Of a stretch of DNA of 64,000 nt, positions 42,819 to 53,773 are shown piece after piece. Location: assembly GCF_003334385.1 (NCBI RefSeq), contig NZ_QOWN01000024.1. One strand, 5' to 3'. The stretch is from Escherichia coli (GTDB taxonomy: Bacteria > Pseudomonadota > Gammaproteobacteria > Enterobacterales > Enterobacteriaceae). The translations under genes and the position numbers were made by a program. A model generated the notes under the pieces. That model saw only the letters and a list, made by a program, of their open reading frames with translations, was not told where the DNA came from and searched no databases. The first letter of the stretch is position 1, and the number at the start of each line of letters is the position of its first letter.

Positions 42819-45800
42819 TTACACCTTTTCCACATTCACAAGGAAGGACTTAAACTCCGGCGTCTGCGTGTTCGCATCACCAACGAATGGCGTTAAAGTA
42901 TTGGCAATAAAGCCTTTTTTAGCTACGCCTTCATAGCCCCAGTGAATCGGAATACCGATGGTATCGATATCTTTGCCGTTCGCTTTCAGCGTGCGAATAC
43001 GTTTGGTCACCACCGCTTTGGCTTTGATATAGCCACGGTTGGAGGAGACTTTCACGGTATCGCCCTGGGCAATGCCAAGTTTATTCGCCAGCGACTCCCC
43101 GATTTCCACAAACTGCTCTGGCTGCAAAATCGCGTTCAACAGCGCGTGTTTGGTCCAGTAGTGGAAGTGCTCGGTCAGACGATAGGTGGTTCCGACATAC
43201 GGGAACTTATCGGCTTTACCCAATGCTTCGGCGTCGTCTTTAAAGATACGTGCAGCCGGGTTCGAGATAACGTTTGGATGCAGCGGGTTAGTTCCCAGCG
43301 GCGTTTCAAACGGCTCGTAGTGTTCCGGGAACGGACCTTCCGCCATCTTATCGAGGGCAAACAGACGCCCCATGCCTTCCTGCTGCATGATAAACGGCCC
43401 GACGCCGCTACCCGGAGGCGCTGCGCTGTAGTCCGGAATATCCCAGCCGGTCCACTTAGTGCCGTCCCATTTCAGCAACTGACGCTTCGGATCCCACGGG
43501 TTACCCTGCGGATCTGCGGAGGCGCGGTTATACAGAATGCGGCGGTTAAGCGGCCATGCCCATGCCCAGCCCAGCGTGTTACCGAGGCCAGACGGATCGG
43601 CGTTATCACGGCGTGCCATCTGGTTGCCTTCCGGCGTCCAGCTACCGGCGAAAATCCAGCAGCCACAGGAGGTTGTACCGTCATCGCGCAATTGGGCGAA
43701 CGAACTAAGTTGTTGGCCTTTCTTGACGATAACCGCACCGGTTGCCGGATCGGTAATATCGGCCAGCGCCTTACCGTTGCTCTCCATCGCCACTTCTTCT
43801 GAAGATGGCTCATGCGGAATGGCGTAGTTCCATGTCATGTTCAGCACCTGGTCCGGGTTCGCGCCACCCCGTTCGGCATACATCTTGCGCAAGCGCAGGA
43901 AGATACCGGAGAGGATCTCGCCGTCAGTCAGCGCAATCCCCGGGGCGTCCGCACCTTTCCAGTGCCACTGTAACCAGCGACCTGAGTTAACGATAGAACC
44001 GTTCTCTTCCGCGAAGCAGGTCGATGGCAGACGGAACACTTCGGTCTGGATCTTCGACGAGTCAACTTCGTTCAGCTCACCGTGGTTCTGCCAGAAGTTA
44101 GAGGTTTCAGTGTTCAGTGGGTCGATGGTGACGAGGAACTTCAGTTTCGACAGACAACCGATCACTTTGTTTTTGTTCGGGAATGAGGCAACAGGGTTAA
44201 AGCCCTGGCAGATATAGCCATTGACCTTGCCCTCTTTCATCATCTCGAAGTATTGCAGGACGTCGTAGCCTTTATCCCACTTCGGCAACCAGTCAAAGCC
44301 CCAGCTATTTTCCGCCGTCGCTTTATCACCAAAGAAGGCCTTCATCATAGAGACGAAGAATTTCGGGTAGTTGCCCCAGTAGTTTACCTGGCCTTCCAGC
44401 AGCGGTTTTGGCGTGTTGGCGGTAAGGTAGGTTTGCAGATCGGTCTGCTTCTCGCTTGGCAGCGTCATGTAACCTGGCAGGCTCTGCGACAGCAGCCCCA
44501 GGTCCGTCAGCCCCTGAATATTGGAGTGACCGCGCAGGGCGTTAACGCCGCCGCCTGCCATCCCCATATTGCCGAGCAGCAGCTGGATCATCGCCATCGT
44601 ACGAATGTTTTGCGCACCAACGGAGTGTTGCGTCCAGCCGAGGGCATACAGGAACGAGGCAGTTTTATCGTGAGCACTGGTTTCTGCGATGTATTCGCAG
44701 ACTTTCAGGAACGCGTCTTTTGGCGTACCACAGATGTTTTCAACCACATCTGGCGTGTAGCGGGAAACGTGCTGTTTCAGCAAGTTCCACACGCAGCGCG
44801 GATGTTGCAGCGTGGTATCGCGTTTGGCGAAGCCGTTTTCGTCCAGTTCATAAGTCCAGGAGGATTTATCGTACTTGCGTTTTTCCGCGTCGTAGCCGGT
44901 GAACAGGCCATCTTCAAAGCCGTAATCCTCACGCACGATCAGGCTGGCGTTGGTATAGGCTTCGGTGTATTCGCGGTTGAATTTTTCATTGTTCAGCAGG
45001 TACAGCAATACGCCTGACAGGAAAGCAATGTCAGTACCGGAACGAATAGGGGCATAGTAGTCAGCTACCGCCGCCGTACGCGTAAAGCGAGGATCGATCA
45101 CAATCAGTTTCGCGCCGTTGTGAATTTTGGCTTCCATCGCCCAGCGGAACCCGACCGGGTGAGCTTCAGCGGCGTTACCGCCCATCACCACGACGAGGTT
45201 GGCGTTCTTGATGTCGACCCAGTGGTTGGTCATCGCACCGCGACCAAATGTTGGAGCAAGACTTGCTACCGTTGGTCCGTGTCAGACACGCGCCTGGTTG
45301 TCGACCGCGAGCATACCCAGCGCGCGGGAGAATTTTTGCGTTAAATAGCCGGTTTCGTTACTCGACGCGGAAGCACACAGCATCCCGGTGGAGAGCCAGC
45401 GGTTAACAGTCACGCCTTCGGCGTTTTGCGCAATGTAGTTAGCATCGCGGTCTTCTTTCATCAGTTTGGCGATGCGATCAAACGCCTCTTCCCAACTGAT
45501 TTGCTGCCATTTATCAGAACCTGGCGCACGGTATTCCGGAAACTTCAGACGGCTTTCGGAGTGGATGAAATCCACCAGGCCAGCGCCTTTCGGACAAAGT
45601 GCACCGCGGTTGACCGGGTGATCCGGATCGCCTTCGATATGGAAGATAGATGCTTTGGCGTTTTTTGCTCCGTCACCGAGGCTGTACATCAACAGCCCAC
45701 AGCCTACGGAACAATAGGTGCAGGTATTACGGGTTTCGCGGGTGCGCAGCAGTTTATACTGCCGGGTTTCCGCGAGTGCTACGCTGGGTGCAAAACCCAG

Positions 45801-45869
45801 TGCCGCTGCCGTGGTGCCTGCCATACCGCCAGCGCAGATCTTAAAGAACTGCCTTCTGCTGACCTGCAT
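42819..45869 (-). CDS. fdoG: formate dehydrogenase-O major subunit (selenoprotein, in-frame UGA = Sec at 45282-45284)
   Basis: Two ORF-track pieces (195 aa and 804 aa) in the same frame separated by a single TGA; Tat signal RRQFFK at the N-terminus; molybdopterin oxidoreductase motifs; total 1016 codons. Confidence 0.92.
45235..45281 (-). promoter_or_regulatory. SECIS stem-loop directing selenocysteine insertion in fdoG
   Basis: Sequence immediately 3' of the UGA (cacggaccaacggtagcaagtcttgctccaacatttggtcg) resembles the fdhF SECIS arrangement. Confidence 0.6.
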
Positions 45870-47048: not shown

Positions 47049-48104
47049 ATGAAAAGGAATTTATTATCTTCCGCTATTATAGTCGCCATCATGTCCCTCG
47101 GTCTGACGGGTTGTGATGATAAAAAAGCCGAAACAGAAACGCTCCCGCCTGCCAATAGTCAACCTGCCGCACCAGCTCCTGAAGCGAAACCTACTGAAGC
47201 TCCCGTTGCAAAAGCAGAAGCTAAACCTGAAACACCTGCGCAACCGGTGGTCGATGAACAAGCGGTTTTCGACGAAAAAATGGATGTCTATATCAAGTGC
47301 TACAACAAGTTACAGATCCCGGTACAGCGCAGTCTGGCGCGTTATGCTGACTGGCTGAAAGATTTTAAACAGGGGCCTACCGGTGAAGAGCGTACTGTTT
47401 ATGGCATCTACGGCATTAGTGAATCCAACCTCGCTGAGTGTGAAAAAGGCGTAAAAAGTGCTGTGGCGTTAACGCCTGCGCTGCAACCAATTGATGGCGT
47501 GGCGGTGAGTTATATCGATGCTGCCGTGGCGTTGGGTAATACCATTAACGAAATGGATAAATATTACACCCAGGAAAATTATAAAGACGATGCGTTTGCG
47601 AAAGGGAAAACGCTGCACCAGACATTCTTAAAAAATCTGGAAGCCTTTGAACCTGTAGCCGAATCTTATCATGCGGCGATTCAGGAAATTAATGATAAGC
47701 GTCAGCTTGCGGAACTGAAAAATATTGAAGAAAGAGAAGGGAAAACATTCCACTACTACTCTCTGGCAGTCATGATTTCAGCGAAACAAATTAATAACCT
47801 GATATCGCAAGATAAGTTTGATGCAGAAGCGGCAATGAAGAAAGTGTCTGAACTGGAAACGCTGGTGGCGCAGGCCAAAGAAGCGGATAAAGGCGGCATG
47901 AATTTCTCGTTTATTAATTCGGCAGGCCAGTATCAACTCGAGGCTAAAAAATACGTTCGCCGCATCAGAGATAAAGTCCCGTACTCTGACTGGGATAAAG
48001 AGCAACTTCAGGACGCAAACTCAAGCTGGATGGTCGAAGACTCTTTCCCGAGAGCATTACGCGAGTACAACGAAATGGTTGATGACTATAATAGCCTGCG
48101 TTAA
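47049..48104 (+). CDS. yiiG: lipoprotein YiiG (DUF3829)
   Basis: 351 aa; lipobox LTGC after the signal peptide. Confidence 0.88.
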   Translation: MKRNLLSSAIIVAIMSLGLTGCDDKKAETETLPPANSQPAAPAPEAKPTEAPVAKAEAKPETPAQPVVDEQAVFDEKMDVYIKCYNKLQIPVQRSLARYADWLKDFKQGPTGEERTVYGIYGISESNLAECEKGVKSAVALTPALQPIDGVAVSYIDAAVALGNTINEMDKYYTQENYKDDAFAKGKTLHQTFLKNLEAFEPVAESYHAAIQEINDKRQLAELKNIEEREGKTFHYYSLAVMISAKQINNLISQDKFDAEAAMKKVSELETLVAQAKEADKGGMNFSFINSAGQYQLEAKKYVRRIRDKVPYSDWDKEQLQDANSSWMVEDSFPRALREYNEMVDDYNSLR

Positions 48105-48127
48105 ACGTTTTTGATGATAAATGCAGT

Positions 48128-48150
48128 GTCGGATGCGGCGCATCCGACAC
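48128..48150. terminator. bidirectional terminator hairpin between yiiG and the convergent frvR-derived ORF
   Basis: gtgtcggatgcggcgcatccgacac palindrome. Confidence 0.6.
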
Positions 48151-48153
48151 AGT

Positions 48154-49659
48154 TCACCCCTTGTGAAGTAACTCCATAAATGCCTCATATCCTGTTAACC
48201 CGGCAATAACCTCTGCCGGATGCTGACACAATACGCTTGCCAGATAGCTGAATATTTTCAACTCGTGACGCGCATCGGCGGCGGCGCAGGCGATCAAGAC
48301 ATGGTTAATGACTTCGTTATTCACCTCAACTGGTTGGGCGAGGGTAATAAAAAATCCACGAAAACGTCGCTCCTGTTCGCTCCAGCAATGTGGGATGGCG
48401 AGGCGATTAACAATCAGGTTTTCACCTTCGCCTTCGCGGGCGATGATCCGTTGCGCTTCATCGGCGGTAATATGGTGTTGTGCCACTAATTGCGCACAAA
48501 TTTGCCGGGTAATATGTTGCCAGCTTTCACCGCGTACATTCGAATAATGAAAACTTCCGGGGGCAGAGAAAAAACGCTCCGGTTGCTGGCGAATAAATGC
48601 CGTCGCCAGAAAATGTTTTATTTGTTCGATACCGGCAGCCGTAATGATATTTTTTACGGTGATGTAATTATTGACCGCGTCATCCAGTAAATAATGGCTG
48701 TTGTTAATGATCAATAACGGCTCAATCTCTTCGCGAATGGCAACAAGTTCGCTTAAGCTACGGGCAATAATCACCCGACAATGTAAAACATCGCGCTCAA
48801 TGGCGAGCTGATTAATGGTGGCAATCGCGTTCTGGTCCGAGAGCAAAATGATCGGCTGGCGTTCGTTTTGATGCCGCTCCAGCGCACAGGCAAAATACAA
48901 ACCGATCAGATCGCTGTCGAAAAGGGGAATATCGAGCTGTTCACGCAGTAGCGTAATAAAGTGCAGACTCATATCAAAGGCCGCAGGCCAGGCGGCTTTC
49001 AGGTTATTCATGCTGCTCTGGCGGTGCTCAGCAATCCACACTGGTGCGGCAAGGCAACGTAATAAATGCCCGGTAATATTCTCAACCAGCTGCGCATCAA
49101 TAATATTCAATGACGCGATGCCCGGCACCCTTTGCAGCAACCCCTGCACATTATCGGCTGAAATTACCTGCGCTTGCTGATGCTGTTTCTCTATCAAACC
49201 CGTCAGGGTTCTTACAGCGTTATCACCAAGAAACAGACCGCTATGTTCAACGATTTGTTTTATCTCGTCACCGGGATATTGCGGCCACTCATCGGTCAGT
49301 TGATTACGCAGGGCGTAAATCGCCAGAATCAGGCTGGAGAGATAATCACCCTGCATGAGCGGCCAGCGGTGTTGGTTGTCGCAGGCCGTGGATAAATGCT
49401 GAAGGTTGTCTCGTGTTATGCCCGCCAGCGGAATTAAAAACGGATCTTTGCGCAGCAAGTTCGCCAGCAAGATAACGCGTTTCTCTTCTTCTACCATGGC
49501 AAACAGCAGATTACGCGCTTTGTCGAGATAGATGGCGTAGTTATGCGCACCGTGAGATTTCAGCACTGCTTCCAGTTCTGGCCAGATGGGATTATGCCGA
49601 CGCTGATACTCTTCGTGGGCGTCGGGGTTTACCTGCATGACAAAGGCTTTGCGGATCAT
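48154..49659 (-). CDS. in-frame fusion ORF: RhaM (L-rhamnose mutarotase) N-terminal ~57 aa joined to the C-terminal ~444 aa of an FrvR-like PTS-operon regulator; marks a deletion of frvA-frvB-frvX
   Basis: 501 aa ORF starting [57 protein letters not shown] (RhaM N-terminus as I recall it), then continuing [12 protein letters not shown]... to a C-terminus next to yiiG, where frvR lies in K-12. Junction near 49480-49495. Confidence 0.65.
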
Positions 49660-49668
49660 GTTTGCTCC

Positions 49669-50494
49669 TTACAGCGCCAGCGCACTGGCGAGTGGCGTAA
49701 CGCCGAAACGCTTGCCGAGCGCTATCAACTCTTCACGGCTGATGGTCTGTTTCATGCCGCCCATCGAATAAACCTTCACTAATACTTGTGCTGATTTTTC
49801 TGCGGTGTCGATTAAACCGAAGATTTCATCCAGCGTCGGTCCGCTGCCGAAGACGCCGTGGAAGGGCCACAACACCAGCGAATGTTTTTGCATCTCTTGT
49901 GCGGTCGCCTGGCCGATTTCGTCCGTGCCGGGCACCATCCACGGCAAAATGCCAACGCCATCCGGGAATACCACCAGACACTCGGTGCTGCCTTCCCACA
50001 GTTGGCGAGTGAAGACCGCGGTGTCGTTTTCAAGTACATAGGTGAGGGCGGATCAGGTTGGTGGCGTGGCAGTGCATGATCACCCGATCTTTGCCGTTGG
50101 TGGCTTTAATGCGCTCGCAGTGGGAAAGGAAGTGAGCCGGAAGTTCGGAAGTGGGGACGGCTTCGTTGGTTAACCCCCAAAGAATGTGGTAGCCCGCGCC
50201 GTCGCTGTCGACTTTTACGATGCCTAAGTTAGCCGCAGGATCAAGCTGGACGTTACGGAAGAATTTGCCCGAGCCGGTGACAATAAACGGTGTATTTGCC
50301 AGTAAAGGCATGGGCTGGCTGAGCGGGATATAGCGCGGTTGTTGGTGGAAATTGTCGTGATATGGTGCGATATCGGCGTCATCCAGGCGTAGCGTCAGGT
50401 TGCCGCCGTTGCGCTCATCCCAGCCTTTCAGCCAGGCGTCGGTGGTGGCTTTGATCATTCCCTGGACAAACCAGGACTGAGTAATGTTTTGCAT
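49669..50494 (-). pseudogene. rhaD: rhamnulose-1-phosphate aldolase rhaD disrupted by a +1 frameshift
   Basis: N-terminal 211 aa ORF (true start [11 protein letters not shown] at 50494) ends NLIRPHLCT* at 50030. The C-terminal part continues in another frame ([33 protein letters not shown]...). Total 826 nt versus 825 expected; the extra base is in gggcGgatc near 50050. Confidence 0.8.
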
Positions 50495-50524
50495 GTTCTG
50501 TGTTCCTGTAAATTCGGTGTTGTC

Positions 50525-50760
50525 GGATGCACGACCCGTAGGCCGGATAAGGCGCTCGCGCCGCATCCGGCAATCAATGCCTGATGCGACGCTGTCGCGT
50601 CTTATCAGGCCTACAACTATTGCCGACCTGTAGGCCGGATAAGGCACTTGTGCCGCATCCGGCAATCAATGCCTGATGCGACGCTGTCGCGTCTTATCAG
50701 GCCTACAACTGTTGCCGACCCGTAGGCCGGATAAGGCGCTCGCGCCGCATCCGGCAGTGT
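50525..50760. repeat. tandem BIME/REP array (about 2.5 copies of a ~95 bp unit) between rhaD and rhaA
   Basis: Repeated unit gtaggccggataaggc...gccgcatccggcaatcaatgcctgatgcgacgctgtcgcgtcttatcaggcctacaact. Confidence 0.9.

Positions 50761-53773
<3,013 letters not shown>

Follow-up and report, generated by a model that had tools for sequence, protein, structure and literature searches.

Spontaneous deletion of frvABX joins rhaM to frvR in frame in a rare Escherichia coli lineage, probably leaving an inert chimeric pseudogene

The L-rhamnose mutarotase RhaM (YiiL) of Escherichia coli K-12 is a protein of 104 residues (PDB 1x8d), encoded directly after rhaD, and FrvR (NF007366; 582 aa) is the putative regulatory protein at the end of the frvABXR operon, adjacent to yiiG. 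According to Pfam, intact FrvR comprises an HTH_11 domain (residues 5–60; E = 8e-10), a weak second winged-helix match (79–118) and a PTS_EIIA_2 domain (455–560), and a PDB search with the full-length protein gave no meaningful homolog for the part beyond residue 138. Both frvA and frvB have been classed as accessory genes within ST131 (PMC9837563). The closest counterpart of the locus considered here is found in E. coli SCU-104 (NZ_CP053284.1), a human commensal with a finished circular chromosome, isolated in California from a healthy student's rectal swab; a table in PMC11251922, whose extracted text is flattened, appears to list it as phylogroup A, ST8125. In SCU-104, loci HHJ22_RS23995 and HHJ22_RS24000 were annotated by PGAP as two side-by-side partial pseudogenes, ‘L-rhamnose mutarotase, missing C-terminus’ and ‘putative frv operon regulatory protein, missing N-terminus’. 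Literature searches on frvR/rhaM, on the frv genes and on the carrier strain names gave no description of the deletion that separates this arrangement from the norm; a second carrier, KTE14, is likewise undescribed in the literature found, where the matches concerned KTE146.

The window analyzed here (64,000 nt of E. coli contig NZ_QOWN01000024.1) has the same junction, the same 501-aa frame and the same rhaD and yiiG neighbors as SCU-104, but presents the two remnants as one minus-strand ORF (Table 1). We infer, with a probability of roughly 0.93, that a spontaneous deletion left this ORF as an inert chimeric pseudogene, which can serve as a lineage marker, and not as a new gene. A single homology-independent loss of 3,826 bp in the ancestor of a rare E. 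coli lineage would have brought the stumps of rhaM and frvR into frame by chance, such that gene callers give one 501-aa ORF. Any product would plausibly come from a transcript reading through from the rhamnose-induced rhaBAD(M) operon and would be translated from the native rhaM ribosome-binding site (RBS). The operon presumably controlled by FrvR is gone, and the fusion would be best read as an inert remnant, because it has half of the RhaM fold, no FrvR helix-turn-helix (HTH) and no presumed target operon.

Table 1. Coordinates in the window of the rhaM–frvR fusion and of the neighboring rhaD lesion.
Feature	Position	Strand	Description and basis
Chimeric ORF RhaM 1–57 :: FrvR 139–582	48154..49659	-	ORF listing, tblastn and sequence comparison; 501 aa, ATG start, stop codon included
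rhaM-derived 5' segment	49490..49659	-	170 nt: codons 1–56 plus 2 nt of codon 57; native ATG kept; exact-match extension against L002 and L013
frvR-derived 3' segment	48154..49489	-	third base of the T138 codon, codons 139–582 and stop
Deletion junction	49489..49490		blunt; L013 10248..14073 and L002 10591..14416 missing
Native rhaM Shine-Dalgarno GGAG	49665..49668	-	read from the sequence; precedes the ATG by 5 nt and overlaps the rhaD end
rhaD	49669..50494	-	pseudogene: extra C at 50050-50051, frame shift after ~codon 148; TAA stop 49669-49671

The composition of the ORF agrees with the original prediction, which had described about 57 residues of RhaM followed, after ...LLFAMVE, by a different protein whose C-terminus adjoins yiiG at the frvR position. 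Fusion residues 1–57 correspond to RhaM 1–57 and residues 58–501 to FrvR 139–582, and all are identical to those of strain 210221272, the closest non-carrier found. With proteins translated from an intact relative as tblastn queries against the window, RhaM 1–59 aligned to 49659..49483 (the identity over RhaM 1–57 covering 49659..49489) and FrvR 139–582 to 49488..48157. Codon 57 still specifies Glu although it is a hybrid: its GA comes from rhaM Glu57, and its final A is the third position of the Thr138 codon in frvR. The fusion thus shares with K-12 RhaM residues 1–57, the start codon, the RBS (both kept, as had been proposed) and the position after rhaD, but lacks residues 58–104, the C-terminal half of the fold. 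It shares with FrvR residues 139–582, including the EIIA type-2 domain, and the adjacency to yiiG, but lacks the N-terminal 138 residues with HTH_11 and the weak winged-helix, along with the presumed targets frvABX. The yiiG gene (47049-48104) is intact in the window and lies just downstream, convergent with the fusion ORF, in the same layout as in intact strains.

The breakpoints were set by exact-match extension, with PSJ-32-1 (L002) and strain 210221272 (L013) as intact references. Both references agree that the left match ends at window position 49489 and the right match begins at 49490, with 3,826 bp of reference sequence absent between them; the loss had been estimated at 3.5–4 kb and the junction at 49480–49495, with rhaM codon ~57 joined to the interior of frvR, and the alignment bears out each of these. 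By the reference annotation, the deletion took out the final 142 nt of rhaM, the rhaM–frvA spacer, the genes frvA, frvB and frvX, and 414 nt from the start of frvR. Searches of the 64-kb window gave no matches to FrvA, FrvB or FrvX (tblastn) or to the deleted DNA (blastn), in keeping with the predicted absence of all three genes; the fusion therefore does not stand at the end of an frvABXR operon, the layout present in both intact references.

Identity across the join is 0 nt in both directions, the base past each breakpoint being a mismatch. The stretches within 30 nt of the two breakpoints have no k-mers of ≥6 nt in common, and when the breakpoint regions were aligned locally the score was 20 against a null of 15.1 ± 2.7, a value equaled by 7% of random pairs. 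The breakpoints thus show no direct repeat with one copy retained, the signature of a repeat- or microhomology-mediated deletion. The two native sequences abut directly, with no inserted or foreign bases and no IS at the join, and no FRT or loxP site was found anywhere in the window with up to 6 substitutions allowed, so that a residual 34-bp recombinase scar is absent from the junction, as originally predicted. Because the join is blunt and shows no repeat, microhomology, FRT/loxP or extra bases, the event looks like a homology-independent (illegitimate) deletion. A deletion has a chance of about 1 in 3 of joining two coding sequences in frame, and the open frame therefore needs no special explanation.

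To establish how widely the junction occurs, window positions 47900-50100 were compared by megablast with 5,426 complete E. coli genomes, of which 5,423 had a match. In 5,422 of these the match is divided at the junction; only SCU-104 is collinear (99.9% identity), giving a frequency for the fusion of 1/5,426 complete genomes. The exact 501-aa protein is nonetheless present on 59 contigs and in 149 index blocks of a 15-billion-protein collection, with sources in NCBI, ENA, JGI and Logan, and includes EOU55586.1 of E. coli KTE14. The 31-nt junction AACGCGTTTCTCTTCTTCTACCATGGCAAAC is present in every carrier locus fetched (L001 and L003–L011), that is, SCU-104 (L001) and nine loci from an encoding-contig look-up covering NCBI isolate and ENA metagenome assemblies, L005 being again SCU-104; these carriers were obtained via exact protein identity, which biases them toward intact copies. 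An exact search for the junction in JGI metagenome contigs gave 0 matches, a weakly informative result given that this collection is mostly environmental; ENA metagenome assemblies do contain the fusion allele. The fusion sequence is thus already in public databases and represents a real but ordinary lineage deletion, for which the 31-nt junction provides a clean marker.

The original prediction had left two origins open, spontaneous deletion or scarless engineering, and the provenance of the carriers decides for the former. Scarless engineering of a laboratory strain, for instance through CRISPR or through lambda-Red plus counter-selection, would account for a clean blunt join with no scar; we consider it extremely unlikely, and the wild provenance of the carriers rules it out, the same junction occurring in unrelated projects (a California rectal swab, the KTE clinical collection and ENA metagenomes). 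FRT and loxP are also absent, and the breakpoints lie inside two genes with no design logic to their positions. An assembly artefact, in which the frv genes are really present and were lost by collapse or mis-joining, has nothing specific in its favor beyond the fact that a single draft assembly could in principle be mis-joined. Such an artefact is extremely improbable, since the identical junction recurs in ten carrier loci that several independent pipelines assembled, one of them a finished circular chromosome, and the breakpoints have no repeat or homology able to cause collapse. The deletion is therefore spontaneous and natural. Across 64 kb, ~15 SNPs separate the window from SCU-104 and ~25 separate it from the non-carrier strain 210221272; the carrier locus L006 (GCA_012504395.1) matches the window at 100% identity across 13.5 kb. 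On these distances all are close relatives, and shared descent from one ancestral event is likely.

Apart from the SNPs, strain 210221272 and the window are collinear over 64 kb except for the 3,826-bp deletion, one extra C in rhaD and an IS1 that, in strain 210221272 (L012 21504-23545), interrupts the annotated MFS transporter gene found at the position of yihN and is absent from the window at ~22000. SCU-104 differs from the window in having an intact rhaD, in a 12-bp indel that its 513-bp cpxP suggests to lie in cpxP, and in having its yiiG interrupted, beside the fusion ORF, by an IS10-type element (ISVsa5 family transposase; L001 3812-6205 / L014 16885-19278). As yiiG is intact in the window, this insertion came later and separately, and did not cause the deletion.

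The reverse polarity, with the fused form ancestral and frvABX inserted in other strains, is effectively excluded. A 104-aa RhaM and a 582-aa FrvR are the norm, with at least 4,188 complete genomes holding at least 80% of the missing segment; the solved RhaM structure has 104 residues; and the fusion spans only halves of both curated family models. Those 4,188 are out of 5,426 complete genomes, and ~23% are without most of the segment through other events, typically retaining only its rhaM end. With so many genomes lacking most of the segment, frv is dispensable and its loss commonplace. In WP8-S17-ESBL-12 (L016 4523-7316), for example, frvABX is missing between yiiG and the rha operon as in the window, but this genome has lost the whole of frvABXR, has a carbohydrate porin gene between a truncated yiiG and an intact rhaM, and shows no fusion. 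Loss of that type is a different and much more widespread event, from which the rhaM–frvR fusion is separate and rare. In other genomes the porin gene appears to lie inside the frv–rhaM interval, and the match there is in two pieces.

Domain scans of the fusion are consistent with loss of the FrvR HTH and of the 3' half of rhaM, both of which had been predicted. Pfam identified only rhaM (residues 3–58, model positions 1–55 of 105) and PTS_EIIA_2 (374–479; E = 3.5e-13); no HTH was matched in the fusion, and its membership of the PTS EIIA type-2 family (PF00359) is upheld by the retained domain. Against the RhaM equivalog model TIGR02625 the fusion scored 94.0 bits, below the cut-off of 99.6 (intact RhaM, 193.6), and the complete fold of ~102–105 positions is not covered (1–58 of 102 in TIGR02625; 1–55 of 105 in PF05336). 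Identity to YiiL (PDB 1x8d) runs through residue 57 and then stops. The FrvR model NF007366 gave 788.9 bits, above the cut-off of 426, but over profile positions 136–586 only. The encoded protein would therefore consist of half of a small single-domain enzyme fold attached to a regulator that has lost its DNA-binding module, and mutarotase activity is very unlikely because half of the fold is missing.

These results bear on the name under which the protein circulates. KTE14 EOU55586.1 and identical GenBank entries match the 501-aa product exactly and differ in name only, being called ‘L-rhamnose mutarotase’. This name is misleading, since the protein scores under the TIGR02625 cut-off and is ~89% FrvR-derived; it could spread to other annotations, and the two partial pseudogenes called by PGAP are correct. 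Among the records of the 501-aa protein (for example EOU55586.1 and CAM6778534.1), one of the names is attributed to Shigella boydii, which may reflect a biochemical misidentification of the carrier.

We also considered whether the chimera is a functional new protein: an FrvR regulatory module, induced by rhamnose and unable to bind DNA, whose EIIA-type phosphoacceptor domain would let it act through PTS phosphorelay cross-talk, or which would titrate a partner. The ORF is in frame behind a native RBS and ATG, its PTS_EIIA_2 domain is complete, and it is identical in many assemblies and intact in every carrier examined, all of which counts against inertness. We give this possibility little weight. 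There has been no sequence change since the deletion, hence nothing that indicates selection; the RhaM stump is half of a ~105-residue single-domain fold and would probably destabilize the N-terminus; intact FrvR itself has no demonstrated function; the allele is very rare, at one complete genome; and the rhaD frameshift upstream in the sub-lineage of the window likely lowers downstream expression via polarity. Intactness of the ORF is itself uninformative on function, because retrieval by exact identity favors undamaged copies and decay would not be expected in so young a lineage. The more specific scenario of a stable rhamnose-induced chimera, in which the orphan FrvR/EIIA module takes PTS phosphate and couples rhamnose availability to PTS signaling, we regard as very unlikely; if true, it would exemplify the very recent birth of a gene, through a deletion fusion, in a wild lineage of E. 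coli.

The inert chimeric pseudogene is thus the reading that we favor. Both parts of the fusion show zero amino-acid changes relative to strain 210221272, and with neither decay nor adaptation since the deletion, the event would be recent. A dN/dS test for selection on the fusion was dropped as powerless, there being no substitutions relative to the nearest intact strain. On this reading the fusion carries little biological weight: it records a rare, recent and lineage-specific loss of a cryptic accessory PTS operon, one that is missing in any case from about a quarter of E. coli.

The rhaD gene, upstream of the fusion in the same operon, carries a second lesion, such that the rha catabolic operon of the window combines a rhaD frameshift with the rhaM truncation. 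Alignment with rhaD of SCU-104 and PSJ-32-1 places the insertion, on the coding strand, as GATCGCC to GATCCGCC; it splits the gene into ORFs at 49669..49974 and 50030..50665, and a Thr-to-Ile change lies further downstream, near 49823. Among the ten carrier loci the frameshift is common to L006 only, and the truncated 154-aa product occurs in one further public contig (Logan/ENA). A rhaD null with intact rhaT, rhaB and rhaA does not grow on rhamnose, and build-up of L-rhamnulose-1-phosphate and inhibition by the sugar tend to follow. From this pathway knowledge the sub-lineage of the window is predicted to be Rha-, and possibly rhamnose-sensitive, a phenotype that could affect biochemical identification; SCU-104, KTE14 and the other carriers should be Rha+, lacking only the non-essential mutarotase.

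The spacer between rhaA and rhaD (~50528-50756) contains a REP/BIME-like array with self-matches offset by ~92 bp; its copy number varies among deletion carriers (L004, L007 and L009 align with shifts), and the 211-aa ORF listed for rhaD begins artificially within it. A scan for promoter and terminator consensus sequences over 47900-50900 gave no excess over shuffled controls and no site in the interval from rhaD to the fusion. Where the fusion ORF and yiiG converge, a perfect GC-rich hairpin (GTGTCGGATGCG/CGCATCCGACAC) separates their stop codons at ~48126-48150; it is likely a bidirectional terminator or REP-like element, which the simple terminator scan did not pick up.

Elsewhere in the window, the gene for the formate dehydrogenase-O alpha subunit (42819-45869, minus strand) is split into ORFs of 195 aa and 804 aa by a TGA at 45282-45284, which we take to encode, in frame, the selenocysteine that this enzyme is expected to contain; since relatives annotate one 1016-aa CDS, the gene is not a pseudogene.
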